This document shows positions 1 through 29,098 of a DNA stretch of 32,000 bases, piece by piece. The notes beneath the pieces are model-generated. The model was not told the DNA's origin and made no database searches. It worked only from the letters and a program-made list of their open reading frames with translations. Both the position numbers and the translations under genes were made by a program. Position 1 is the first letter of the stretch; every line of letters begins with the position of its first letter. This stretch comes from Candidatus Kuenenia stuttgartensis. Its GTDB lineage: Bacteria; Planctomycetota; Brocadiia; Brocadiales; Brocadiaceae. Location of the stretch: NCBI RefSeq assembly GCF_900232105.1, contig NZ_LT934425.1, forward strand, positions 3,330,001 through 3,362,000, in the 5' to 3' direction.

Positions 1-878
1 TCAACACGGTAAAAGCGGTTATCAATGCGGACATCGGCAAAGGTTCTGTCAACGGTTCTGGGGATGCGTTTCATGAAGAAGGCAAGAGCGGCGTCCATAT
101 CGACGTGTCGGATGACGGTAAGCCCCTCGTCGTAGCGTTGTTTTGGAGATTGATTGGTTTCGGAGTGGATTCTTGCGTGATAGACAACGGCAAGGTAAGC
201 GGAGAAGGCCTGGTTAATGGCATCAAGGGTGATAATGTCGCCGGAGCGGACTTCCGACTCGAACTGTGTCTGGCTGGTGCCGAAGAAACGTTCGACCAGT
301 CCGCCGGGAGCAGGGTCGCGTGGTGGTCTGTGGATGAGTTTAATGCCGAGGTTGTAACAGGCAGAGCGCAGGGCGTCAGAGTGGTAGACCTTGGCATTGT
401 CGAGGTAGAGTTCTTTGGGCGAGCCGTGGATAGTCCAGGCCCTGATGAGAGAATCGATAAGGATATCGAGGGTTTGTTTGAGATAATACCGTCCTTCGAC
501 CACATAACGGCTGTAGCAGTCGATAAAGAGACAGAGGTTTGTGGGAAGCGCCTCGCCGTCAACGAGCACGAAAGGGCCTTCCTGGAAGTCGCCAATCCAG
601 AGGTCGTGGGTATGCTCACGGCTAAGAGCGTATACGCACCTTTTGCTGTGAGACGCCGAGTTTGAGCCGGGTCGCCCCTGCGAGTCTGAGATGGCGGTAG
701 AGGGTGGATTTGGGGATCGTTTTCCCATAGTATTTCTCAAGAAAGCGGTTGAGGCAATCGTCGCTGCGGCGTGGTTGTTCTTTTTTGAGTTCAACGGCTT
801 TGTCGATAATTTCAGGAGAAAACCTTCTGGATGCGCCACGGTCGCTCCTCGCCTTTCTTGCAAGAGATTGAAATCCAT
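1..878 (-). CDS. Copy A transposase catalytic part (rve/DDE core), 3' end beyond the window; same frame break as copy B
   Basis: Mirror image of 8999-9876 in copy B. The ORF runs off the window edge, so it is absent from the ORF track. Confidence 0.7.
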   Translation of the reverse strand, partial: MDFNLLQERRGATVAHPEGFLLKLSTKPLNSKKNNHAAATIASTAFLRNTMGKRSPNPPSTAISDSQGRPGSNSASHSKRCVYALSREHTHDLWIGDFQEGPFVLVDGEALPTNLCLFIDCYSRYVVEGRYYLKQTLDILIDSLIRAWTIHGSPKELYLDNAKVYHSDALRSACYNLGIKLIHRPPRDPAPGGLVERFFGTSQTQFESEVRSGDIITLDAINQAFSAYLAVVYHARIHSETNQSPKQRYDEGLTVIRHVDMDAALAFFMKRIPRTVDRTFADVRIDNRFYRV

Positions 879-1074
879 CTTTGCGGTAGCGGTTGAGTTT
901 TCTCCTGAGGGTAGAGATAGTGGGTCTTTTCCGCTTTCCGTTGGGGAATACGACCTCCTGAAGGCAGAGTTTTTTCAGAAAAAGGTTGGTCTGCTCCTTC
1001 TCAATCTCACCGAAGATGACAGGATGCAGAAGATTGCACCAGAATAAAGCCCATTTTTCGTCTTTCGATTTCAT
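622..1074 (-). CDS. Copy A transposase N-terminal HTH segment (150 aa)
   Basis: Identical to ORF 8803-9255. Confidence 0.7.
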   Translation of the reverse strand: MKSKDEKWALFWCNLLHPVIFGEIEKEQTNLFLKKLCLQEVVFPNGKRKRPTISTLRRKLNRYRKDGFQSLARKARSDRGASRRFSPEIIDKAVELKKEQPRRSDDCLNRFLEKYYGKTIPKSTLYRHLRLAGATRLKLGVSQQKVRIRS

Positions 1075-1112
1075 AATTCACCTCCTTTTTTAAGTGTGGA
1101 GGTGATTGTAAC

Positions 1113-1751
1113 TCAAGACCAGCCGCTTTTTGTTGCCAGTTCGGGGAAAAATGAATGCCCAAAAATTCGGTGATATTCCGGCTCGGCGCTGAACAATTGA
1201 ATCGATTGATCGAGGGAGGTTTTTCGTTGTTTGCTTTTATACTTTCCGTGGTAAATGGGAAACATTTGGCGAAAAACCGGAGAGTTGGGGTCGGCCTGCC
1301 TGATGAGGTCAAAGGCGTTGCGGAGTGTGTATTTCAGTGAGCCAAAGAAACGCAGCCACCTCCAAACGGTTGACCAGGCAAGCATGCGGTTGTCTATTTC
1401 CTGTGTTCGGGTAGTATATCCGATGGCAGAGGAGACACTCCGGTAGGTTTCTGTATCATCTTTGACATAAGCCTGACTGAAGGAGAGACAGTGATCCTTT
1501 ACGTACCGCTTGTAAGGGAGCGCATACTCAGGATAGGAAGTAAACGTCTTCTTGCACAAGGAACATTTCCAACGTCCCAGGAAAGATTCTATCGTATGAA
1601 CAAGGGAGTCGATAATAACGTGAAACAACCGATATCTGCATTCATGAAGGGTGAAATTGACATGGGTACTCTTGCACTTTGGACAAAAGCATGGCTTCTG
1701 TTTTGTCGCAATAAGCTTTTCATGCTTGTGGATTTTTTCTATAATATTCAC
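1113..1751 (-). CDS. Copy A element-encoded zinc-ribbon protein (212 aa), function unknown
   Basis: Identical to ORF 8126-8764. Two CxxC pairs (CPKC ... CSLC). Confidence 0.7.
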   Translation of the reverse strand: MNIIEKIHKHEKLIATKQKPCFCPKCKSTHVNFTLHECRYRLFHVIIDSLVHTIESFLGRWKCSLCKKTFTSYPEYALPYKRYVKDHCLSFSQAYVKDDTETYRSVSSAIGYTTRTQEIDNRMLAWSTVWRWLRFFGSLKYTLRNAFDLIRQADPNSPVFRQMFPIYHGKYKSKQRKTSLDQSIQLFSAEPEYHRIFGHSFFPELATKSGWS

Positions 1752-2159
1752 GCACTGCCTCCTTTGTATAGGGGGGAAATGGGCAGGAGGATGAAGTTTC
1801 CCAACGTTCGGTCCTCCTGCCCTGAGTTTTTTATGTTCCGGAAAAATCTTACAAAACTTGTCCTCGTGAAAACGGGGAACTGGGAAGTAAACCGCCGTTA
1901 GGAAGTTTGGAAGTGGTTTTAACCCCTTCCAAACTATTTAATGAGGCTTTACTCCGCCTTACGGACGGAACTTCTTTCTAACGGGGTAAACGATGTATTT
2001 TTCTTAACGTGAACAAAAAATCAAGTGAAATACTTACGCAGGATAAAAAAAAGGCGGGGTAGCTGGGTAAGATTTTTCAAATCATTTGCTGGGTATTAGA
2101 CTCAAATATTCTGAGACTAATTGGGCATTTTTGGAGCATTTATTCTAAGACGTAGCAGC

Positions 2160-3223: not shown

Positions 3224-4561
3224 ATGAAGAATATAGCAAAAAAATACAGCAAAAGACAACCGAAAATCAAGGCAGAGATGAGCGGGAAAGGCTTAACGGT
3301 ACATGCAGGGCTTTTACCGGTATTGAATTTTATGGGTAAGCTGATGTTCCGGGAGAGAGTCCATGAAGCGGTCCATAAGGATCGTGGAGCAAATGCCCGG
3401 TATCAGTTTGTCGATGCGGTACAAATGGTAGTGATAGGGTTGATAGCAGGGGCGACATCGATGGTAGAGGTGATGAAGGTGTGTACAGATGAGGTATTGA
3501 AGAAGATGTCCGGGTGGAAAGAGGTACCTGTAGATACTACGATAGGACGTATTATGAAGCTGGCGAGTCAGGGAGATATAGTGGAACTGACGGGGGTGAT
3601 CCACCGGTTTAGGGGAAAGATATGGAAGCGTGCGGTGAGATCAGGCCATAAACTCAGGAGTGCTCTTTGCGAAGTATGGATAGATGTTGATTCTACCGTA
3701 GATGGTGTATATGGGAAACAGGAGGGTGCAGAGGTAGGATATAATCCGCACAAGAAGGGGCAGAAGGCGTATCATTCCTTAATGGCATTTATTGCAGAAA
3801 CAAAGGAGGTATTACATAGTTGGTTCCGCTGTGGAAGCGCCTACACGAGTAACGGAGTAGTAGAGTTCATGAAGGAATGTATGGCGTACATGAATAAGGG
3901 GGTAAGGGTGGTATTTCGAGGAGACAGCGGTTTTTTTACCGGAGAATTACTTGAATACCTTGAGTCAATATTGGCGGGATATCTGATTAAGGTAAAGCTG
4001 AAGAATCTGGAAGGATTGCTTGAAGGGCAGAAATGGAATGAGGTGAAAGGGGAGCCAGGATGGGAACAGGCTGAATTTTGGTATCGATGTGCAGGGTGGG
4101 ATCGTGCGAGACGTTTTGTGGCAGTGCGGCAATTGGTCAAAAGAGAAAAGAAATTAGTAGAAGTGTCCGTGTATGAGTATTTTTGTTACGTTACAACGGA
4201 GCGGTTAAGTCCGATGGAAGCGCATCGTTGTTATGGAAAGAGGGCTACCTGCGAGACTTTGATAGAAGAGAGTAAAGGACAGATGAATGCGGGGCACATA
4301 CGTACGGGTGAATTTTTGGCCAATGCTGCGCTATTTCAGTGTGCGGTGTTAGCGTATAATCTTTTGAAGTGGATGGGATTGCTCAGTGGTGGAGTGATAC
4401 AAAAGTGGGAAGTAAAGACGATGAGACTGTGGTTAATCCGTGTGGCAGGGAAACTGGTGGAGAGAAGCCGGCAGATGACATTAAAATTGCCGGAGAAATT
4501 TCTCCATCAGGAGGAATGGGAAAAGTGGGAACGCATGTCACTGGATGTAGTTTTTCAGTAG
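3224..4561 (+). CDS. IS1380-family DDE transposase (445 aa)
   Basis: Motifs WIDVDSTVDGVYGKQEGAEVGYNPHKKGQKAYHSL, FRGDSGFF and the C-terminal ...ANAALFQCAVLAYNLLKW are typical of IS1380. A candidate imperfect IR is GGCGGTATATTGATAAC (about 3177) versus GTGGTAAGTATACCGCAG (about 4606-4623). Confidence 0.8.
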   Translation: MKNIAKKYSKRQPKIKAEMSGKGLTVHAGLLPVLNFMGKLMFRERVHEAVHKDRGANARYQFVDAVQMVVIGLIAGATSMVEVMKVCTDEVLKKMSGWKEVPVDTTIGRIMKLASQGDIVELTGVIHRFRGKIWKRAVRSGHKLRSALCEVWIDVDSTVDGVYGKQEGAEVGYNPHKKGQKAYHSLMAFIAETKEVLHSWFRCGSAYTSNGVVEFMKECMAYMNKGVRVVFRGDSGFFTGELLEYLESILAGYLIKVKLKNLEGLLEGQKWNEVKGEPGWEQAEFWYRCAGWDRARRFVAVRQLVKREKKLVEVSVYEYFCYVTTERLSPMEAHRCYGKRATCETLIEESKGQMNAGHIRTGEFLANAALFQCAVLAYNLLKWMGLLSGGVIQKWEVKTMRLWLIRVAGKLVERSRQMTLKLPEKFLHQEEWEKWERMSLDVVFQ

Positions 4562-7712: not shown

Positions 7713-8054
7713 ATGATGCTGCTACGTCTTAGAATAAATGCTCCAAAAATGCCCAATTAGTCTCAGAATATTTGAGTCTAATACCCAGCAAATGATTTGA
7801 AAAATCTTACCCAGCTACCCCGCCTTTTTTTTATCCTGCGTAAGTATTTCACTTGATTTTTTGTTCACGTTAAGAAAAATACATCGTTTACCCCGTTAGA
7901 AAGAAGTTCCGTCCGTAAGGCGGAGTAAAGCCTCATTAAATAGTTTGGAAGGGGTTAAAACCACTTCCAAACTTCCTAACGGCGGTTTACTTCCCAGTTC
8001 CCCGTTTTCACGAGGACAAGTTTTGTAAGATTTTTCCGGAACATAAAAAACTCA

Positions 8055-8096
8055 GGGCAGGAGGACCGAACGTTGGGAAACTTCATCCTCCTGCCC
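8055..8096 (+). promoter_or_regulatory. 11-bp perfect stem hairpin (GGGCAGGAGGA / TCCTCCTGCCC, 20-nt loop) about 15 nt upstream of the RBS of the first transposon gene
   Basis: The stem contains an SD-like AGGAGG and an anti-SD-like CCUCCU. The true RBS AAGGAGG lies about 15 nt downstream, so alternative pairing is possible. Confidence 0.35.
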
Positions 8097-8125
8097 ATTT
8101 CCCCCCTATACAAAGGAGGCAGTGC

Positions 8126-8764
8126 GTGAATATTATAGAAAAAATCCACAAGCATGAAAAGCTTATTGCGACAAAACAGAAGCCATGCTTTTGTCCAAAG
8201 TGCAAGAGTACCCATGTCAATTTCACCCTTCATGAATGCAGATATCGGTTGTTTCACGTTATTATCGACTCCCTTGTTCATACGATAGAATCTTTCCTGG
8301 GACGTTGGAAATGTTCCTTGTGCAAGAAGACGTTTACTTCCTATCCTGAGTATGCGCTCCCTTACAAGCGGTACGTAAAGGATCACTGTCTCTCCTTCAG
8401 TCAGGCTTATGTCAAAGATGATACAGAAACCTACCGGAGTGTCTCCTCTGCCATCGGATATACTACCCGAACACAGGAAATAGACAACCGCATGCTTGCC
8501 TGGTCAACCGTTTGGAGGTGGCTGCGTTTCTTTGGCTCACTGAAATACACACTCCGCAACGCCTTTGACCTCATCAGGCAGGCCGACCCCAACTCTCCGG
8601 TTTTTCGCCAAATGTTTCCCATTTACCACGGAAAGTATAAAAGCAAACAACGAAAAACCTCCCTCGATCAATCGATTCAATTGTTCAGCGCCGAGCCGGA
8701 ATATCACCGAATTTTTGGGCATTCATTTTTCCCCGAACTGGCAACAAAAAGCGGCTGGTCTTGA
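8126..8764 (+). CDS. Transposon-encoded zinc-ribbon protein (212 aa, GTG start), function unknown
   Basis: CFCPKCKSTH...HEC and CSLCKK motifs. Preceded by caaaggaggcagtgcGTG. First gene of the element. Confidence 0.65.
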   Translation: MNIIEKIHKHEKLIATKQKPCFCPKCKSTHVNFTLHECRYRLFHVIIDSLVHTIESFLGRWKCSLCKKTFTSYPEYALPYKRYVKDHCLSFSQAYVKDDTETYRSVSSAIGYTTRTQEIDNRMLAWSTVWRWLRFFGSLKYTLRNAFDLIRQADPNSPVFRQMFPIYHGKYKSKQRKTSLDQSIQLFSAEPEYHRIFGHSFFPELATKSGWS

Positions 8765-8802
8765 GTTACAATCACCTCCACACTTAAAAAAGGAGGTGAA
8801 TT

Positions 8803-9255
8803 ATGAAATCGAAAGACGAAAAATGGGCTTTATTCTGGTGCAATCTTCTGCATCCTGTCATCTTCGGTGAGATTGAGAAGGAGCAGACCAACCTTTTTCT
8901 GAAAAAACTCTGCCTTCAGGAGGTCGTATTCCCCAACGGAAAGCGGAAAAGACCCACTATCTCTACCCTCAGGAGAAAACTCAACCGCTACCGCAAAGAT
9001 GGATTTCAATCTCTTGCAAGAAAGGCGAGGAGCGACCGTGGCGCATCCAGAAGGTTTTCTCCTGAAATTATCGACAAAGCCGTTGAACTCAAAAAAGAAC
9101 AACCACGCCGCAGCGACGATTGCCTCAACCGCTTTCTTGAGAAATACTATGGGAAAACGATCCCCAAATCCACCCTCTACCGCCATCTCAGACTCGCAGG
9201 GGCGACCCGGCTCAAACTCGGCGTCTCACAGCAAAAGGTGCGTATACGCTCTTAG
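8803..9255 (+). CDS. Transposase N-terminal HTH/DNA-binding segment (150 aa), ends at TAG 9253-9255
   Basis: RBS aaaggaggtgaattATG. RSDRGASRRFSPEIIDKAVELKKEQPRRS...IPKSTLYRHL resembles the MuA/TnsB/TniA N-terminal HTH region. Confidence 0.7.
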   Translation: MKSKDEKWALFWCNLLHPVIFGEIEKEQTNLFLKKLCLQEVVFPNGKRKRPTISTLRRKLNRYRKDGFQSLARKARSDRGASRRFSPEIIDKAVELKKEQPRRSDDCLNRFLEKYYGKTIPKSTLYRHLRLAGATRLKLGVSQQKVRIRS

Positions 9256-10363
9256 CCGTGAGCATACCCACGACCTCTGGATTGGCGACTTCCAGGAAGG
9301 CCCTTTCGTGCTCGTTGACGGCGAGGCGCTTCCCACAAACCTCTGTCTCTTTATCGACTGCTACAGCCGTTATGTGGTCGAAGGACGGTATTATCTCAAA
9401 CAAACCCTCGATATCCTTATCGATTCTCTCATCAGGGCCTGGACTATCCACGGCTCGCCCAAAGAACTCTACCTCGACAATGCCAAGGTCTACCACTCTG
9501 ACGCCCTGCGCTCTGCCTGTTACAACCTCGGCATTAAACTCATCCACAGACCACCACGCGACCCTGCTCCCGGCGGACTGGTCGAACGTTTCTTCGGCAC
9601 CAGCCAGACACAGTTCGAGTCGGAAGTCCGCTCCGGCGACATTATCACCCTTGATGCCATTAACCAGGCCTTCTCCGCTTACCTTGCCGTTGTCTATCAC
9701 GCAAGAATCCACTCCGAAACCAATCAATCTCCAAAACAACGCTACGACGAGGGGCTTACCGTCATCCGACACGTCGATATGGACGCCGCTCTTGCCTTCT
9801 TCATGAAACGCATCCCCAGAACCGTTGACAGAACCTTTGCCGATGTCCGCATTGATAACCGCTTTTACCGTGTTGACCCCAAACTCAGAGGCGATAAAGT
9901 AGAAGTCCGTTACGACCCATACGGCGATCTCAAAAAGGTCTTGATCTATTCCGCAAACGGTGAATACCTCGGCTCGGGAAATCTCTACCTGCGCGACCAG
10001 GGCGCTGAAACTCCAGCCGCCTCACCTTCAAAACCAAAACATAATTACCTCGACCTTATCACTCAGAAACACAAATCCATTCTCCAGGCTCAGGCCAAAG
10101 GCATTGATTACCACCAAATCATCTCCGAACGACCCTGGCCATTCATGGCATTCGTCCAGAAACTCGCACTCCTCATGGGACACAAAGGCTCTCTCTCCGC
10201 CTTCAGCTCTCATGAACTCGAATCGCTTAAAAAATGCTACAACCGTATCCCCGCTCTCAACGAATCATTGCTCACGGAGGCATTCCAAAATGCCTCCGTG
10301 AAAACCTTACCCTATATCATTCGTGAATTACAAATCGCTTACTCGAAAAAGGAGGTCTCTTAA
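8999..10363 (+). CDS. Transposase catalytic segment (rve DDE core plus Mu-transposase C-terminal domain); meaningful sequence starts at about 9240 in the +1 frame relative to 8803-9255
   Basis: DLWIGDF (D), LYLDNAKVYHS (D) and GGLVERFF (E), then ...IHSETNQSPKQRY and RIDNRFYRVD...VEVRYDP. The first ~80 codons of the listed ORF are low-complexity overlap with the HTH frame. Confidence 0.8.
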   Translation: MDFNLLQERRGATVAHPEGFLLKLSTKPLNSKKNNHAAATIASTAFLRNTMGKRSPNPPSTAISDSQGRPGSNSASHSKRCVYALSREHTHDLWIGDFQEGPFVLVDGEALPTNLCLFIDCYSRYVVEGRYYLKQTLDILIDSLIRAWTIHGSPKELYLDNAKVYHSDALRSACYNLGIKLIHRPPRDPAPGGLVERFFGTSQTQFESEVRSGDIITLDAINQAFSAYLAVVYHARIHSETNQSPKQRYDEGLTVIRHVDMDAALAFFMKRIPRTVDRTFADVRIDNRFYRVDPKLRGDKVEVRYDPYGDLKKVLIYSANGEYLGSGNLYLRDQGAETPAASPSKPKHNYLDLITQKHKSILQAQAKGIDYHQIISERPWPFMAFVQKLALLMGHKGSLSAFSSHELESLKKCYNRIPALNESLLTEAFQNASVKTLPYIIRELQIAYSKKEVS

Positions 10364-21406: not shown

Positions 21407-21434
21407 GTAGAGACGCACGGCCGTGCGTCTCTAC
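21407..21434 (-). terminator. 28-nt perfect palindrome GTAGAGACGCACGGCCGTGCGTCTCTAC abutting the HEPN stop; probable terminator and member of the GTAG...CTAC repeat family
   Basis: 13-bp GC-rich stem with a 2-nt GC centre, beginning 2 nt after the stop at 21436-21438. On the minus strand it is followed by GTTTTG. Confidence 0.55.
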
Positions 21435-21435
21435 T

Positions 21436-21897
21436 TCAGCATAGGAAACTATCCAGGAAGGTATTAATGTCTTTTCGATAGATATCCTTTCGTTTACTTG
21501 AATCCTCTATAACAATTCGTACCTTTCTGGCACCCAGTTCATAAGAGTAGGCATGTCTAAACAGATGCCTGAAGGATCGCAGGTTCTCTAATAGCGCATA
21601 GCTTTCCTGAGACATCAAAGAAGGTCTGATTCCTTCTATCGATATAGCCATGCGTTTCAATAATTCCACGTGGTATGAAGCTTTATTTGGAATATTGTTC
21701 TCGAAGGTATTTGCTACTATTTTGAAAAGATCTTCAAAAGCACAATAAAGATTGTGTAATTGATACGCGATACTTTCTATTCCTGTAGGTCTGTTTTCTT
21801 CCTGTCTTCGTTCCTCCAGTTTGGCATAGATGTTTTCTATCTCTCTTATTTGCGCATCTATATCGGCTTTCAATACTGTGAATTTTCCTTTATCCAT
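21436..21897 (-). CDS. HEPN-domain (HepT-like) ribonuclease toxin (153 aa)
   Basis: R-x4-H motif in LRSFRHLFRHAYSYEL. Start ATG 21897 has RBS-like ggggtgaa. The longer track ORF (to 22026) reads through intron and exon sequence and is rejected. Confidence 0.75.
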   Translation of the reverse strand: MDKGKFTVLKADIDAQIREIENIYAKLEERRQEENRPTGIESIAYQLHNLYCAFEDLFKIVANTFENNIPNKASYHVELLKRMAISIEGIRPSLMSQESYALLENLRSFRHLFRHAYSYELGARKVRIVIEDSSKRKDIYRKDINTFLDSFLC

Positions 21898-21953
21898 TTC
21901 ACCCCATTCTTCTTTATTTTTTCTATCAGCCTGTGTTCCTCTAGTTGTACCAC
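21870..21953 (-). CDS. MNT antitoxin gene, exon 2 (27 codons plus stop)
   Basis: VVQLEEHRLIEKIKKNGVKWIKENSQY* is in frame with exon 1 after removal of 21954-23988. It overlaps the HEPN start by 28 nt. Confidence 0.65.
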   Translation of the reverse strand: MVQLEEHRLIEKIKKNGVKWIKENSQY

Positions 21954-23988
21954 ATCTAGCTGGTAGGCTGGAGGCCATTAGCCTCCAACCCCCACTCGTC
22001 GCCAGATACTTTGGACAACGTGACAAAGCATCCTTTTTAAACCATACGTCTTTCTCGTAGTCAGCGACCCCGAAGTGTTGCTCTATAACAGAGAAAAGTC
22101 AAACATCATGCTTTAGCACACGCCTTAAGAAATTCTCTTTCGAATGAGAGTAACCCCATTTTAAAGAATCGGTGAACAGGGAAACGCTTGTTGTCTGTTC
22201 TCCATTTTCTTGAGAACTTGAAACATCTCAGTCTCATGCGTACCCAACAGTCTAATGAGCGATATACCTTTTGTACATTGCCCAGCCGAAAATAGTTGAC
22301 ATGCCCACGAATTACGGGGTTTAATGTATCAACGATGGCTTGCAGATTGACGCCCTGTGTACGTCTGGTGATGTCTCTGATGTTGTTCCTTCGGCAGGCT
22401 CAGGACAGGCTCTTGAGTTTGTTCAGTGATTTCGTGCTTATACCCTTATACTTGCCCTTGAAATCGTATCCGAGAAACCTGAAACCTCTTTTGAAGTTGG
22501 TGAGCTTGGTTTTATCCTCGCTCAGCTTCATTCCAAGTTTCCCTGCAATGATTTCTTTGACATAGCTGAGGGCGGCTGGGAGTTCATCTTTTGTTTTAGT
22601 CATGACAACGAAATCATCGGCGTATCGGACAAACTTATATCCAGCCTTTTCAAGTTCCTTGTCGATGATGTTACCGATAAGGTTTGCAAGCAAAGGGGAA
22701 ATTACACCTCCTTGCGGAGTGCCTTTGTTTGTCTCATGCACGATGCCGTCCTCCATGACCCCTGCCTTGAGCATGTTCTCAATACTGTTCAAAACCCATC
22801 CATCAGCAATTTTCTCACGTAAGGAGTCCATAATAAGCTTATGGGGTATGGTGTCATAGAATGCCATTATATCGGCATCAAGGACGCTGGTATACCCTTC
22901 CTGCTTATACTGTTCAAGCCGTTTGATAGCATCGTGACAGCATCTGTCAGGGCGAAATCCAAAGCTGTTATCTGAGAATCCTTTCTCAAATATTGGCTCT
23001 ATGATTTGCCTGAACGCCTGCTGTACAATCCTGTCCTTAACAATGGGAATGCCAAGAGGTCTCTTGTCATGCCTGCCTTTGGGGATGTATACCCGCAGGA
23101 CAGGCGCAGGGTTGTATATGGCAGTCTTGAGTTCCTGATGGATACTCATGATATTCACATCAAGATTGGACTCAAATTGCTTAATACTTACCCTGTCAAG
23201 ACCAGCTTTGCCTTTATTCTTCTTTACGTGTTTGAAAGCAGCATAAAGGTTTTTCAGACTAAACACCTTGTCTCTTAATGAATGATACTTAAGCATCTCT
23301 CGATATATTCCTTTCGATTGATTACGGATAATAGACTTGTCAATCGTGTTTCCTGGGTACGGATTCTCCCAAACATAGGCAAAAACAAGAGAGGCTCTTG
23401 TTACTGCTTACCTACGCAAAAGAGTTTCTTTTCTCATTGAACGTATTCAATCTGCCACTTTCATCAATTCCACTACGGTTATGCCCCTTTCATTTCCGAT
23501 TCACACCGGAAACTATTATGAGCAATGCTGACGACTTCAAAGATAGACTTGTGAGAGAAGCTTGTCTATCACCATCTCATACAGCTCGGACTTCGGAATT
23601 TCCTTATACCTTGCTGTTAGGGAATTTTGCCCAAGGCGTAAGTCCTCCCCCGGTCATATGGATTACCCCTTTTCCCTTCGTGATGTATGTTCAAACGCAT
23701 TAACCAGAGATGGTTTTACTTAATCTGTTTATCCATCTCCAACAAAGGACATTGTCAGTGCTTCGCTGAGAAATGGCAGTTGGCACGGAATAACACGCCA
23801 CACTCATACACCCCAAAAGGTCGTCTGTACCTCGTAACTCCGTCATACCCCTCACGGGTATATGCTATCTTTCTACGCATACGGATTGCTCCATTGTGTG
23901 CGCATAGGCACAAACTTCTCTACGAGGATTAGGCTCGCAGAGGTGGTATTTTCAACCACTCAGGTATTCCATACTTCAAGGCACACAC
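21954..23988 (-). mobile_element. Group II intron (2035 nt) with internal RT/maturase ORF
   Basis: 5' end GTGTG (GUGYG consensus) at 23988 and 3' end ...AGAT (AY) at 21954. AGATGTG is repeated at both junctions. Excision restores a 119-aa MNT ORF. A strong hairpin at 21966-21990 is positioned like domain VI. Domain V was not identified by eye. Confidence 0.7.
22106..23296 (-). pseudogene. Group II intron-encoded reverse transcriptase/maturase (395 codons, no endonuclease domain) with an in-frame TGA at 22400-22402
   Basis: RT motifs RPLGIPIVKDRIVQQA, FGFRP, TPQGGVISPLLAN, YADDFVV, and maturase X motif LNPVIRGHVNYF in the same frame after the TGA. Confidence 0.8.
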
Positions 23989-24264
23989 ATCTCTGCCAAT
24001 TTCTCTTGAAATGACGGACATTGCTTTAAAAAAATACTCATCCTTTAGCCCAATAAAACCAATATCAACATCAGAGTCTTTTTGAAACCTATATGGCTTC
24101 GTTATCGAACCAAAGAGATAGGCTTCTTTAATAGGTATTTCATGGCTCAGCATATCAAATGTTTTAAATAGTTTTTCTATCAACCGAAGTCGTAACTCTT
24201 CCCGTTCTTTTTTTTCTTGCTCAAGTATTCTATCAAGTAAAAATGTCGAAAATCTTTTACCCAT
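23989..24264 (-). CDS. MNT (minimal nucleotidyltransferase) antitoxin gene, exon 1 (92 codons); unspliced ORF runs to 23929
   Basis: AYLFGSITKPYRFQKDSDVDIGF is the G-S ... D-x-D nucleotidyltransferase motif. Confidence 0.75.
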
Positions 24265-24279
24265 TTTCTATCTGTTTTG

Positions 24280-25428
24280 TTAAATAATTGTCTCAATATA
24301 CCGTTTAAACTTTTCTTTAAATATAAGGCTATCAAAGCCTTCAGCATGTTTTCGAATCGAAAGCGGATCAAATATATTTTTATTATGTTCGAAAAACCTT
24401 ACAGCCTCCAGGAGAGATTCTGTTGTTTGTTCTGTAAAAAATACCCCTGTTGGTGTTTCTGGCTGTTTTTGTTTCATTTCGGGTCTGGATTCAGAGTCAG
24501 GATAAATTCCACGTACGGTTTCCAGCACACCTCCCTTAGCATAGGCAATTACCGGTTTCCCGCATGCCTGTACCTCAAGAGGCACAATGCCAAAATCTTC
24601 CACTCCGGGAAAGATCAGTGCCTTGCAATTTCTGTAAAAATCTTTCAATACTTCTCCCGGTTGCCAGCCGAGGCACTTAATGTTATTCTTTGCCATGTTT
24701 TTAATGAGTTGCTCTTCCTGTCCCCCTCCGATAATTACAAGAGGTAATCCCAATTCCCTGAATGCCTCAATGGCAATATCAATTCTTTTGTAAGGGGCAA
24801 ATGCGGATACGATAAGATAGTAGCCGCCTTCTTCATAGGTATCCGGTGGAGTAAATAATGAACAATCCACTGGAGGATGAATTACCTTTGCGGTTCTTCG
24901 GTAATATTTTTTAATGCGGTTTGCCACATTGTACGAGTTGGCGGTAAAATAATCCACCCGGTTTGAAGACGATACATCCCACATCCTCAGATAATGGGCA
25001 AAGATATTCATTGCCGTCCTTGTCATAAATCCCTTCTTGTTTTTCCCGAAATACGTATGGTAGTGTTCCCACACATACCTCATGGGGGTGTGGCTGTAAC
25101 ATACGTGAAGCGTGGAAGGGGGGGTAATTACCCCTTTTGCGACACAATGGCTGCTGGAGATTACCATGTCGTATGCATCGACAGAGAAACTCTCTATTGC
25201 AAGTGGAAACAAGGGCAAATATGTGCGGTAGTGTGTCTTTATCAGGGGTAATTTCTGTAAAAAGGAGGTGTAGATAGTCCTGTTTTCTATTAAGGGCGAT
25301 ACTGACCCTGGAATATGGAGCAAAGTAAATATATCTGATTGCGGGAAAAGCTCACAGAGACACTCCAGTACCTTTTCCCCCCCACGCATGCCGGTGAGCC
25401 AATCGTGAACAATAGCAATTTTTTTCAT
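24280..25428 (-). CDS. Glycosyltransferase, GT4 family (382 aa)
   Basis: N-terminal MKKIAIVHDWLTGMRGGEKV and C-terminal ...ALIFPGVEDFGIVPLEVQACGKPVIA (E-x7-E region). Confidence 0.85.
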   Translation of the reverse strand: MKKIAIVHDWLTGMRGGEKVLECLCELFPQSDIFTLLHIPGSVSPLIENRTIYTSFLQKLPLIKTHYRTYLPLFPLAIESFSVDAYDMVISSSHCVAKGVITPPSTLHVCYSHTPMRYVWEHYHTYFGKNKKGFMTRTAMNIFAHYLRMWDVSSSNRVDYFTANSYNVANRIKKYYRRTAKVIHPPVDCSLFTPPDTYEEGGYYLIVSAFAPYKRIDIAIEAFRELGLPLVIIGGGQEEQLIKNMAKNNIKCLGWQPGEVLKDFYRNCKALIFPGVEDFGIVPLEVQACGKPVIAYAKGGVLETVRGIYPDSESRPEMKQKQPETPTGVFFTEQTTESLLEAVRFFEHNKNIFDPLSIRKHAEGFDSLIFKEKFKRYIETII

Positions 25429-25842: not shown

Positions 25843-27917
25843 ATATATCCCCCTTTCCGGAAAGATTTCAACAAAATCCTTATTTTAAGCGGGTTTCCAC
25901 AAATTCAAAATAATATGTAGTCGCAGAATAAATGGCCTATTTATTAATACAAATCCTTTATAACCCTATAAATACTGACTTGACAAAATATTTTATTAAT
26001 GATAGTGTAGTCAAAGAATATTGGGACTACATTATGCACCTTACTTATAGCGATTCTAAATACAAAGGGAAAACCTATAAATCTTACTCTATTGCCGAAT
26101 CCTACAGGGATGGCAAAAAGGTCAGAAAAAGAATACTTTGGCCCATCGGGAAACTTTCCGATATTCAAGCCGAGCAAATCAAACTGATATGTAAAACAGT
26201 TGAAAACACAGATCAATTGCAGACTCAGCTCAAAGACGTTGCAGTCCTGGAAAGCAGGGCATATCTCGATATAGCCGTTGTTAATGAGTTGTGGAACCAG
26301 TGGCAGCTTGATCAGGCTTTTGACTACGATGTCACTGCAGGCGCCCTTCCTACCAATATGATTGCAAAGATACTGACTATTAACAGGTGCACCGATCCGT
26401 GTTCTCATTATTCCATTCCTCATTGGGCGAAAAAGAGCGCGCTGGAGGACATTCTTAAAATTGATCTTTCAGGCCTAAATGACGATAAAATCTATTATGA
26501 ATTAGATAAAATACACAAAAACAAAATATCTATAGAGAACCACCTTTTTAACCAAACCTTCTGGAAACGTCCGGAATCCTATAAATTTATCAACTACGAC
26601 CTAACTACTTCCTACTTTGTGGGATATAACTGTGATCTATCGGCATTTGGCAAGGGCAAAATAGAGTGTCATGGCAGGCGGCAGGTCTTACTGGGTGTTC
26701 TTATCAACTCTGAGGGATATCCTTTCAAATGGGATGTATTCCCCGGGAACACCGCTGAGGTAAAAACCCTCAAACAGAATATCAATGCCTGTAAAACCAG
26801 ATTCAAATTGACTGATAAAAACGTCACCCTTGTATTTGACAGAGGCATAATCTCTGAGGACAATGCCAATTTGATAGAAGAAGCCAAACTCAAATACATC
26901 TCGGCATTGGATAGAAATCAGATACCCTCTTGCGGTGTCAGTTTAAAGTCTCTTAATGGGTTATCCATAGAAGATAAGGACGCCTCCGATATACCTATCC
27001 CGCAAGGGTTTTTAAACTATGATGATGAATTATACTACCATGACAATGGCGTCATAGGAAACAAGCGTTTTATTACCGGTTTTAATCCCACTTTATTTAT
27101 AGAAGACCGCAATAATAGAGACGAGAAAATAACCTTTTTTAAGGATTATCTCAAAGAAGAGAATAAAAACCTTAAAAATGCCCAAAGAGACCGGCAATAT
27201 GACGCAACAAAGAGCCGCATTGTAGATGAGCTGAAAAGGTTAAAGATTCATAAATATTTCGAAGACCCTGTTCTGACGTCCATCACCGTTACCCATAGAC
27301 TGAAAAACGGGCAGGTCAAATCCGTCAAAAGTTTCAAAATAGAAATCAAGCTGTTAACTGATGTTATAGCCGCAGATAGATTGTTGGATGGCGTATGTGT
27401 TTTTATCACTAACCATACAGAACGGGAAGATGGAGGTGCGTTTAAAGCAAAACCCCAATCTATAGTTAGAGCCTATCGGGACAAGACAAAAATAGAAGAT
27501 GTCTTTAAAAATGTAAAATCGTTCTTAAAAATCAGGCCCTTCTTTGTCAATACCGAGGCACATGTTAAAGCCGTCTATACTATCTGCATCCTGGCATATT
27601 TTATAAACCGTTATCTATCAAACCAACGAAAGGCAATAGGAGAAAAAGATTTTTTAAACTCAAAGGAACTCTATGCGCCGTTCAAAGATATAGATATCGC
27701 CACTCTTGAGGCTAAAAATACCGGTGAAACCTTAAAGAAAGCCGTGAAACTTCCCGCCGTCACACAAATGCTATTGGAAAAACTTGGAATGTCCAATGTT
27801 GTTTTCGGCCAGTAATTAAAAGACTTCCAAAAGACATGTAGTCGCAGAATCAATGTTTATAAGTGTTTGCCAAATTTGACTTTAGTAATTTCTTTCCGGA
27901 ACATGGGATATATGGGG
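25843..27917 (+). mobile_element. IS1634-family element no. 3 (apparently intact, ~2.07 kb)
   Basis: Inverted terminal regions ATATATCCCCCTTTCCGGAAAGA (25843-) and its inverse TCTTTCCGGAACATGGGATATAT (-27917). Possible imperfect duplication GGAAAGATAA / GGAAAGACAA lies just outside. Confidence 0.55.
26034..27815 (+). CDS. IS1634-family DDE transposase (593 aa from ATG 26034; track ORF starts at 25932)
   Basis: MHLTYSDSKYKGKTYKSYSIAESYRDGKKVRKRILWPIGKLSD parallels the N-terminus of element no. 1. Also YDLTTSYF, VFDRGIISEDN and IRPFFVNTEAHVKAVYTICILAYF. Confidence 0.8.
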   Translation: MHLTYSDSKYKGKTYKSYSIAESYRDGKKVRKRILWPIGKLSDIQAEQIKLICKTVENTDQLQTQLKDVAVLESRAYLDIAVVNELWNQWQLDQAFDYDVTAGALPTNMIAKILTINRCTDPCSHYSIPHWAKKSALEDILKIDLSGLNDDKIYYELDKIHKNKISIENHLFNQTFWKRPESYKFINYDLTTSYFVGYNCDLSAFGKGKIECHGRRQVLLGVLINSEGYPFKWDVFPGNTAEVKTLKQNINACKTRFKLTDKNVTLVFDRGIISEDNANLIEEAKLKYISALDRNQIPSCGVSLKSLNGLSIEDKDASDIPIPQGFLNYDDELYYHDNGVIGNKRFITGFNPTLFIEDRNNRDEKITFFKDYLKEENKNLKNAQRDRQYDATKSRIVDELKRLKIHKYFEDPVLTSITVTHRLKNGQVKSVKSFKIEIKLLTDVIAADRLLDGVCVFITNHTEREDGGAFKAKPQSIVRAYRDKTKIEDVFKNVKSFLKIRPFFVNTEAHVKAVYTICILAYFINRYLSNQRKAIGEKDFLNSKELYAPFKDIDIATLEAKNTGETLKKAVKLPAVTQMLLEKLGMSNVVFGQ

Positions 27918-27972: not shown

Positions 27973-29098
27973 TAGTCAAATAAATCAGATTTTCGAAATT
28001 TGCTCGCCAATAATTTGAAAATTTTCAGTTAAAAGAGTAGACAATTCATCTGTATACTCGTTAATATTTTTGAAAAAACTTAAACATTTGTTTTTAAACT
28101 TCTCATAAGTATCATAATACTTGTTATACAATATTTTTTTGCGAAAGAATTTCCATAATCTTTCAATGAGATTTAAATTGGGTGAATAGGAAGGGAGAAA
28201 TTTGATCTTTATTCTCGAATTTGCAAGGTATTCTTTGACCAACTTAGACCTGTAATATTTAGCATTATCAGAGATTATGTAAATAGTACCGGCTTGAGCA
28301 TACCTTGACTCTATTTCATGGAAAAGCTTTATTGTTGATTGAGCATTGATGCTTTCATCTTCCCGGATTGTTACTTCAAAGGTTTCTATGTCAATAGCAC
28401 CGTTTAAATTTATTCTTTTCCTGCCGGTATTAGAGGGTATTTCCTTCTTTTTGCCTTTCTCTATCCAGCAATATGCAGACGTAGAATTGTGCTGTGGATG
28501 AACTCCATCCATAAAAAGTATCTTATCTCCGGGGGCTTTCTCTTCTTTGAGTTGTTTGTATTTTTCGACAAATTCTTTTTGTTTTTCAGGGTTTGCCTTG
28601 CATGGAACTATTGTAGTTTTCTTGTAAGTAAAGCCTAATCTATCGAGGGTATGTACCATTCCTTCGGGTGTATAGATTTTATTGAATGTCTGTTTTACAT
28701 ATTCAACAATTTCTTTTGCCGCGCTATAGTTGTTTTTCCTGATATGATCTTTTAATTGTTCTTCTTGTTCGCAGGTGAGTTTTGGCACACAGCCAATATA
28801 ATTGTCAGATAAAAGCCCGTCAAAACCTTTATCTTTGTATAGTTTTTCGTAATTCCTGATTGTTTGATCGTCTAACAAGAGCGCCTCTGCTACTTCTTCA
28901 TAACTCCATCCTGAATCAAGAAGAAGTATAGCTTTGATTCGGTCGGCATGACGTCTATGAGGCTCTTTCTTATGTGCTTTTTTAAATTCTATTCGGGTTT
29001 TTTCACTGAGAAATGGATTCATGCAGAATTTAATACTCTAGAAACAATTCAAATGCAAGAAAAAAACAGATTTTTATAAAAATAAATGCTTTTTACTA
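27973..29098 (-). mobile_element. IS630-family element copy 2, intact (1126 bp), TA duplication
   Basis: TA at 27971-27972 and 29099-29100. Ends TAGTCAAATAAATCAG... and ...GCTTTTTACTA. Confidence 0.85.
27985..29022 (-). CDS. IS630-family transposase (345 aa)
   Basis: N-terminal HTH (ADRIKAILLLDSGWSYEEVAEALLLDDQTIRNY) and DDE region (LFMDGVHPQHN ... IISDNAKYY ... NLIERLW). Confidence 0.9.
   Translation of the reverse strand: MNPFLSEKTRIEFKKAHKKEPHRRHADRIKAILLLDSGWSYEEVAEALLLDDQTIRNYEKLYKDKGFDGLLSDNYIGCVPKLTCEQEEQLKDHIRKNNYSAAKEIVEYVKQTFNKIYTPEGMVHTLDRLGFTYKKTTIVPCKANPEKQKEFVEKYKQLKEEKAPGDKILFMDGVHPQHNSTSAYCWIEKGKKKEIPSNTGRKRINLNGAIDIETFEVTIREDESINAQSTIKLFHEIESRYAQAGTIYIISDNAKYYRSKLVKEYLANSRIKIKFLPSYSPNLNLIERLWKFFRKKILYNKYYDTYEKFKNKCLSFFKNINEYTDELSTLLTENFQIIGEQISKI

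Follow-up and report, generated by a model that had tools for sequence, protein, structure and literature searches.

A recently expanded group II intron with a variant domain V interrupts the antitoxin gene of a HepT/MntA-like module in Candidatus Kuenenia stuttgartiensis

Group II introns are known from within bacterial coding genes, as in the case of Ll.LtrB in ltrB, of introns in cyanobacterial housekeeping genes, and of the groEL introns of Azotobacter and E. coli (for groEL, PMC12584367). Among the group II lineages, IIE and IIF introns are marked by a 5-nt domain V loop (GAAAN) that replaces the GNRA tetraloop and by a long domain VI (PMC3753933), and published work assigns an intron of Kuenenia itself, c-Ku.st.I1, to the basal class F introns (PMC3552965, PMC4244168). 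Introns of the B.c.I4 type carry an extra segment after domain VI, which shifts the 3' splice site (PMC1865049, PMC2691827). Type VII HepT/MntA toxin–antitoxin modules, of which Shewanella SO_3165/3166 is the type, place an MNT (nucleotidyltransferase) gene encoding GS...DxD upstream of a HEPN gene encoding Rx4H, the two genes overlapping; in such modules the toxicity of HepT is neutralized through AMPylation catalyzed by MntA. Here we describe a locus of Candidatus (Ca.) Kuenenia stuttgartiensis at which a group II intron splits mntA, the antitoxin gene of an MNT/HepT-like bicistron, and we report the identity and boundaries of the element, its strain-variable presence, its copy number, and its RNA elements. 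The window analyzed is a 32,000-nt stretch of contig NZ_LT934425.1 (positions 3,330,001 to 3,362,000); coordinates below are those of the window, the features of the locus all lie on the minus strand, and L numbers denote the sequences compared with it. The explanation that we favor, and hold to be probable, is that a recently expanded mobile intron entered mntA opportunistically, still splices, and is tolerated there rather than being a selected regulator.

Read along the minus strand, a glycosyltransferase gene is followed by an MNT open reading frame (ORF) that begins at 24264, by some 2 kb containing a reverse transcriptase (RT) ORF, by a HEPN ORF, and by a terminator-like hairpin. A preliminary description, made from the sequence of the window, had noted the MNT ORF (...SREIGRD) running into GTGTGTGCC, and CCAGCTAGATGTGGTACAAC about 2 kb beyond. 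Both are present as quoted, and the proposal that a sense-orientation group II intron splits the MNT gene finds support in the encoded protein, the intron ends, domain VI, and exon-binding site 1 (EBS1). That observation is nevertheless confirmed only in part: an intron does lie here, although not at the junctions proposed. We set them by comparison with uninterrupted mntA alleles from other Ca. Kuenenia stuttgartiensis assemblies. Eight intron-less contigs with the same neighborhood (glycosyltransferase, MNT, HepT) all read GGCAGAGATGT/AGATGTGGTACAA, the junction of the intron-less allele being GGCAGAGATGT/AGATGTGGTAC, and the insert therefore spans 23986..21958 (2029 nt), with one T at its edge assignable to either side. 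The span first proposed, 23988..21954, was misplaced by 2 nt at the 5' end and by 4 nt at the 3' end. The source of the error is apparent from the insertion target, a tandem AGATGT AGATGT with the intron between the two copies. The heptamer AGATGTG that had drawn attention does occur at both junctions, but as a consequence of this repeat in the target and not as a splice signal.

The insert is precise, with no target-site duplication, and its ends recur elsewhere. Copies inserted at about 20 different sites, among them sites in Brocadia, at other Kuenenia loci, in a Hyphomicrobiales metagenome-assembled genome (MAG), and in a Chlamydiae-labelled MAG, have exactly the same ends, starting G(U/C/A)GUGCCUUGAAGUA and finishing CCUACCAGCU, in agreement with the empty-site comparison. 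In the window the intron runs 5' GUGUGCC...CCUACCAGCU 3'. Its first nucleotides, GUGUG, fit the GUGYG consensus; at its 3' end, where the consensus is AY and where an ending in AY had been claimed, it reads AGCU, the real end being ...GCU. The 3' ends of canonical relatives deviate as well, GC, AU, and AC being among them. Position 2 of the intron (window 23985) differs among near-identical copies, which read GUGUG, GCGUG, or GAGUG (L141, L144-L146, L149, L010, L012).

Exon 1 of mntA (23987..24264; codons 1-92 plus 2 nt) matches the intron-less allele up to GGCAGAGATGT, and exon 2 (21870..21957), delimited by comparison with empty alleles, encodes the protein end VDVVQLEEHRLIEKIKKNGVKWIKENSQY. 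Joined at the corrected junctions, the exons give 366 nt that encode a 121-aa MNT containing GRDVDVVQLEE, in place of the 119-aa product first predicted. A search with that 119-aa version found a 121-aa Ca. Kuenenia stuttgartiensis protein, 98% identical, that reads GRDVDVVQLEE; the public protein collection contains the exact 121-aa sequence and lacks the 119-aa form. Uninterrupted homologues had been expected to continue into VVQLEE. The intron-less Kuenenia protein does so, after a DV that the predicted product lacked and that all more distant homologues keep too. Against Pfam Polbeta, the intron-less 121-aa allele scores 37.8 bits (the query, L001, differs from the spliced product of the window by D110N), the 119-aa version 28.0 bits, and the unspliced 111-aa ORF (24264..23929) 24.0 bits, which is below the cutoff. 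The correctly spliced MNT aligns across the junction with a solved nucleotidyltransferase, PDB 2RFF. Left unspliced, the product is without D94 and the 29 residues of the C-terminus, and the conserved DVDV strand is lost, in keeping with the earlier suggestion that an aberrant antitoxin results without splicing. The GenBank entry for the mntA fragment is a 111-aa hypothetical protein.

The two genes that the intron separates have the features of a toxin–antitoxin bicistron. The first ORF matches Pfam Polbeta/NTP_transf_2, and mntA exon 1 encodes the nucleotidyltransferase motif GS...DxD (G52 S53, D65 x D67). The hepT-like toxin gene (21436..21897; 153 aa) matches HepT-like_2 at 94.2 bits, encodes the Rx4H motif as RHLFRH at residues 110-115, and is 97% identical to its counterpart in the empty-site allele. 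The overlap of 28 nt between the mntA stop and the hepT start was described correctly from the outset, and exact removal of the intron restores both the ORF and this overlap. The pair thus shows the motifs and the bicistronic arrangement by which type VII HepT/MntA modules are recognized (GSX10-11DXD, Rx4-6H, overlap). It did not reach the NCBIfam MntA equivalog NF047752 (23.7 bits against a cutoff of 60), for which the query was the misjoined 119-aa product.

Identification of the ribozyme depended on comparison, since searches with Rfam over the whole window, the locus, the 3' 191 nt, and the 5' 711 nt, at the gathering threshold and at E<=10, matched no group II model. The domain V/VI search suggested at the outset as a check likewise came back empty, RF00029 giving no match on the 3' 191 nt even at E<=10, and a descriptor scan found no canonical 34-nt domain V. 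In relatives with an intron protein at about 45% identity, the same Rfam models do give matches. It took comparative analysis to reveal domain VI and a variant domain V. For domain VI (21962..21993), comparative analysis and covariation indicate that the last 36 nt form a 13-bp helix, with the terminal AGCU unpaired and a bulged A21964 at -7 from the 3' splice site; compensatory changes have altered 7 of the 13 pairs on both sides.

The equivalent of domain V is a three-way junction (21998..22068) situated between domains IV and VI. Its basal helix, GUCGC/GCGAC, contains a CGC triad; one hairpin, H1 (22062..22040), is capped by a GAAAG loop, with UG bulged on its 3' strand; and an extra hairpin, H2 (22033..22004), is inserted in the 3' strand of the basal helix. 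The insert amounts to about 37 nt, and the H2 loop sequence GUUGUC is kept in 17 of 20 family members. A covariance model, R1, built from the three-way junction and domain VI finds about 30 family members at 78-125 bits. In the resulting alignment 96% of cells are paired and 21 of 35 pairs have changed on both sides, a result equaled in none of 500 shuffles, while slid controls bring the paired fraction down to 35-45%. This alignment was fitted to R1, which favors the model; still clear are the covariation in the inserted hairpin and an A-U/G-C swap in the basal helix of L054 (53% identity), and RNAalifold on its own predicts the same fold. When canonical relatives are aligned to R1, their AGC/CGC triad lines up with this family's CGC, and the UG bulges coincide. 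On these comparative grounds domain V is present, as a variant that the Rfam model cannot match. We had also considered the invariant AGAGCAAC as the triad, pseudoknotted with the H2 loop GUUGUC. This candidate was rejected: AGAG covaries with CUCU in a small hairpin, which reads UUCC/GGAA in L052, where AGC is not conserved.

The clade with the insert-bearing domain V includes introns of anammox bacteria and of MAGs labelled Omnitrophica, Chlamydiae, and Hyphomicrobiales (L010-L016, L052, L054, L063-L083), and the 5' domains of its introns escape the Rfam D1-D4 models. A separate curiosity is L053 (1-2129, 3301-3364), in which a truncated relative with a 61%-identical intron protein adjoins a Cas6-RT-Cas1 fusion gene; of the structure modelled in R1, its RNA retains the basal helix and domain VI alone, both hairpins being deleted.

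Exon recognition is represented by a candidate EBS1, AUUUCU (23769..23774), which occupies the terminal loop of a hairpin (23786..23758) and pairs at 5 of 6 positions with exon nucleotides -6..-1, AGAUGU. The loop varies with the exon it faces: over 9 copies, pairing with the copy's own exon averages 4.6/6, compared with 2.9-3.2 in cross-pairing and shifted controls. Own-exon pairing reaches 6/6 in L015, 6/6 in L012, and 5/6 in L052; examples of complete (6/6) pairing are UCGUUC/GAAUGA and CUUUCU/AGGAGG. For EBS2 and EBS3, a k-mer complementarity scan gave no consistent second site.

The RT/maturase ORF of the preliminary description is there, although its frame is split. The RT ORF proper (22400..23296; Pfam RVT_1, 136 bits) ends after 298 codons at a TGA (22400-22402), beyond which the maturase (X/GIIM) domain continues in the same frame (22106..22399; Pfam GIIM, 57.6 bits), open to a stop at 22106-22108. 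On TIGR04416, the equivalog model for group II RT/maturases, the protein read through the internal stop reaches 392 bits (cutoff 300), and its best solved relative is the GsI-IIC RT, 6AR1. The TGA lies within a 24-nt insertion at the RT/X-domain boundary (about 22389..22412), delimited by alignment with 388-aa relatives and absent from all of them. All of the K. stuttgartiensis copies that we compared, from at least 10 loci (L141-L149, L061), carry the same insertion, UGA included, and K. stuttgartiensis genomes contain several distinct 298-aa variants of the protein. The closest copy without the insertion, L062, is 97% identical. On either side of the UGA, the differences among copies, and between them and L062, fall mostly at third codon positions, with a bias toward synonymous changes in the maturase part; this pattern suggests that both halves of the protein are still used. 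At the UGA no SECIS-like (selenocysteine insertion sequence-like) or readthrough structure was found, the local fold being no better than shuffles (z = +1.25). Readthrough, two polypeptides, and help in trans are candidate ways in which a UGA-split protein could support expansion. The changes private to the window copy are all in the ORF, and the ribozyme parts of this copy are no less intact than elsewhere in the family's Kuenenia copies.

Expansion there has evidently been. Nine further full-length copies at other loci, 99.3-99.6% identical, bring the total to at least 10 in Ca. Kuenenia stuttgartiensis, at unrelated sites. One of the copies interrupts dinB, a Y-family polymerase gene, in the sense orientation (L146:1620-4925, GCA_048500235.1); excising it at the same boundaries gives back a continuous 424-aa ORF. 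The filled mntA site of the window recurs, at 99.7% identity, in the closed genome CP049055.1, and no fewer than 5 further assemblies have it too; the site is empty in at least 8 contigs. Also without the intron are the contigs L155 and L156, which are most likely genomic DNA. Their flanks are 99.8% identical to those of the filled allele, and they share its haplotype, defined by N110 in MntA and by G122/S133/S134/R136 in HepT. It follows that the insertion is recent and that the HepT substitutions are older than the insertion. The intron-linked HepT allele scores 6.7 bits lower on Pfam, and we had entertained its four substitutions as post-insertion attenuation of the toxin; that idea was rejected, the same haplotype being carried by the intron-less L155 and L156.

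A scenario that accommodates these observations can be outlined. A full-length group II intron whose protein lacks the endonuclease (En) domain, belonging to a family recently expanded in Ca. Kuenenia stuttgartiensis, would have reverse-spliced into the site AGAUGU/A in mntA, which resembles intron-binding site 1 (IBS1), and been reverse-transcribed there, taking up the sense orientation without duplicating the target. Unspliced RNA would then give the 111-aa MNT without the DVDV strand, and only splicing at GAUGU/...GCU/AGAUG would restore the 121-aa MNT. The reaction would fall to the ribozyme of this copy, which is free of private mutations, and either this or another genomic copy could provide the intron protein. 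HepT, for its part, could be translated from the precursor RNA, because hepT has its own purine-rich stretch, GGGGUGA, just upstream of its AUG and within mntA exon 2. In a consensus scan for promoters inside the intron that might drive hepT, sites were no commoner than expected by chance. Expression of hepT may also be lowered by the 2 kb of structured intron through which transcription and translation have to pass.

We infer from the genomic comparison both that splicing continues and that the insertion is opportunistic and tolerated, as opposed to a selected regulator of the toxin/antitoxin balance. That antitoxin supply would depend on splicing follows logically from the layout of the genes, and to this extent the initial interpretation of the locus is partly supported. 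There is no evidence, however, of an evolved coupling of toxin/antitoxin balance to splicing. At least 10 scattered copies, a strain-variable site, and a hepT nonsense codon in one lineage together point to an accident rather than a device.

Several observations weigh against our explanation and should be set beside it. Domain V departs from the canonical form (AGC/CGC triad, 2-nt bulge, tetraloop), and neither this intron nor its close relatives are matched by an Rfam group II model. The intron ends in CU instead of AY. The EBS1-IBS1 pairing contains one mismatch and one G-U, and no EBS2 turned up in the k-mer scan. The maturase frame is interrupted by a UGA. Splicing itself is a prediction from sequence. 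Finally, in two contigs with a filled site (L056, L057; GCA_048500235.1, GCA_015075145.1), hepT codon 33 has changed from GAA to TAA and the RT ORF contains a 272-nt tandem duplication. These changes fit decay of the locus; taken by itself, the hepT nonsense allele is compatible with relief from an antitoxin in short supply as well as with plain decay.

Foremost among the alternatives is an insertion that does not splice at this site, leaving mntA a pseudogene in a module that is decaying or silent. The division of the intron protein by UGA, the non-canonical domain V without an Rfam match, and the lesions of L056 and L057 would all sit comfortably with such a state, as would the situation in relatives with about 75% MNT identity (L151:945-1058, L152, L153). 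In these the MNT gene is intact between glycosyltransferase and Bac_transf (sugar transferase) genes, and hepT is only a 37-aa remnant, with residues 1-26 joined to the last 13. Yet the UGA and the variant domain V are common to all copies of an evidently mobile family and are no lesion of this copy, whose ribozyme parts are without private changes. Both exons and hepT are intact in the window; a dead antitoxin gene beside a live toxin gene should be counter-selected. We regard loss of splicing at this site as unlikely.

Less probable again, in our judgment quite improbable, is that the intron serves as a regulator, its splicing efficiency setting the toxin/antitoxin ratio in an arrangement kept by selection. 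The intact exons of every filled allele and the intact hepT of the window and of CP049055.1 could be read in this way, and the GGGGUGA upstream of the hepT AUG makes HepT translation independent of splicing possible. Set against this are the recent date of the insertion and its confinement to some strains, the presence of the same element at no fewer than 10 unrelated sites, and an imperfect IBS1 target typical of ectopic retrotransposition. Moreover, a nonsense codon has cost one filled lineage its hepT, and the retention of MNT beside a 37-aa hepT remnant in relatives indicates no strong joint selection on the pair. A similarly long shot is a splicing-gated antitoxin, whereby HepT would be made from precursor and spliced RNA alike and active MntA would need exon ligation. 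Were this so, lowered splicing, whether through temperature, Mg2+, or the supply of the UGA-split protein, would release the HEPN RNase, and a growth-arrest module would be tied to the activity of a retroelement with an insert-bearing domain V. That there is no intron here at all, and that the insert is an assembly chimera, another retroelement, or an insertion sequence, can practically be dismissed: the missing Rfam match is the sole point in its favor, while the filled locus occurs in several independent assemblies, one a closed genome, the insert is precise and without target duplication, the protein passes the group II RT/maturase model, and domain VI, a domain V-like junction, and EBS1 are present.

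The surroundings of the locus merit a brief description. The glycosyltransferase gene upstream of mntA occupies 25428..24280, and the terminator-like hairpin, identified by sequence scan, lies directly after hepT (21407..21434) and is followed by a T-run. Transposase genes are found just upstream of the glycosyltransferase gene, at 25932-27815 (DDE_Tnp_1, 627 aa) and 27985-29022 (DDE_3, 345 aa); the equivalent stretch of CP049055.1 (L055) has small ORFs instead, including a HicA-toxin/HTH (helix-turn-helix) pair. Further away, a perfect 2159-nt inverted repeat (window 1-2159 and 7718-9876) runs off the window start. Its unit resembles an insertion sequence, with an HTH_32 ORF at 622-1074 and a weak, sub-threshold DUF6431 match at 1113-1751, and its arms flank 5.6 kb that contain a DDE_Tnp_1_4 transposase gene (3224-4561). 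In L150 this unit is found beside an intron fragment, which it flanks. Judged by its gene content, the whole neighborhood is a mobile-DNA hot spot.

What is new at this locus is the antitoxin-gene context, together with the ribozyme and protein variants of the family; it is no new kind of element. Neither an intron-bearing antitoxin gene nor an interrupted domain V came to light in the searchable literature, and as a sign of absence this is weak. As a natural example of a toxin–antitoxin gene broken up by a bacterial group II intron the locus is clean, and its isogenic filled and empty alleles, along with a toxin-knockout lineage, make it directly testable whether splicing limits the supply of antitoxin. 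More broadly, the hairpin inserted in domain V hides a clade of group II introns from the Rfam models for domains V/VI, and those for D1-D4 miss it too. The family has spread, moreover, despite an in-frame UGA that separates its RT and maturase domains. The domain V insert and the UGA split thus bear on how intron surveys are conducted, and on the tolerance of the catalytic core and of the intron protein to change.

Measured against the systems with which we began, the locus resembles each in part. Like type VII HepT/MntA modules, it has MNT GS...DxD upstream of HEPN Rx4H with overlapping genes; unlike them, its HepT, a predicted toxin, belongs to the HepT-like_2 family. The B.c.I4-type introns offer a precedent for an extra RNA module at the domain V/VI end of an otherwise standard ribozyme, but in the present intron the extra hairpin is inside domain V and the 3' splice site is at a normal distance from the branch A. 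With class E/F introns (for instance, Pe.th.I2 and Ge.ur.I1) it shares an En-less protein of about 388 aa and a small ribozyme, and it has both of the RNA traits of IIE/IIF introns, namely the 5-nt domain V loop and the long domain VI. It differs from them in the hairpin of about 37 nt in the 3' strand of the domain V basal helix, in its CGC triad, and in its ends, GNGUG at the 5' side and CU at the 3' side. These RNA traits are compatible with membership of class F, where c-Ku.st.I1, which may or may not be this element, has been placed. In common with Ll.LtrB, the groEL introns, and the introns of cyanobacterial housekeeping genes, the mntA intron lies in the sense orientation within an ORF whose expression would need splicing. 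Where it parts from these introns is in its host gene and its history: here an antitoxin gene has been entered, without a conserved homing site and in some strains only, by one of many ectopic copies of a mobile intron.

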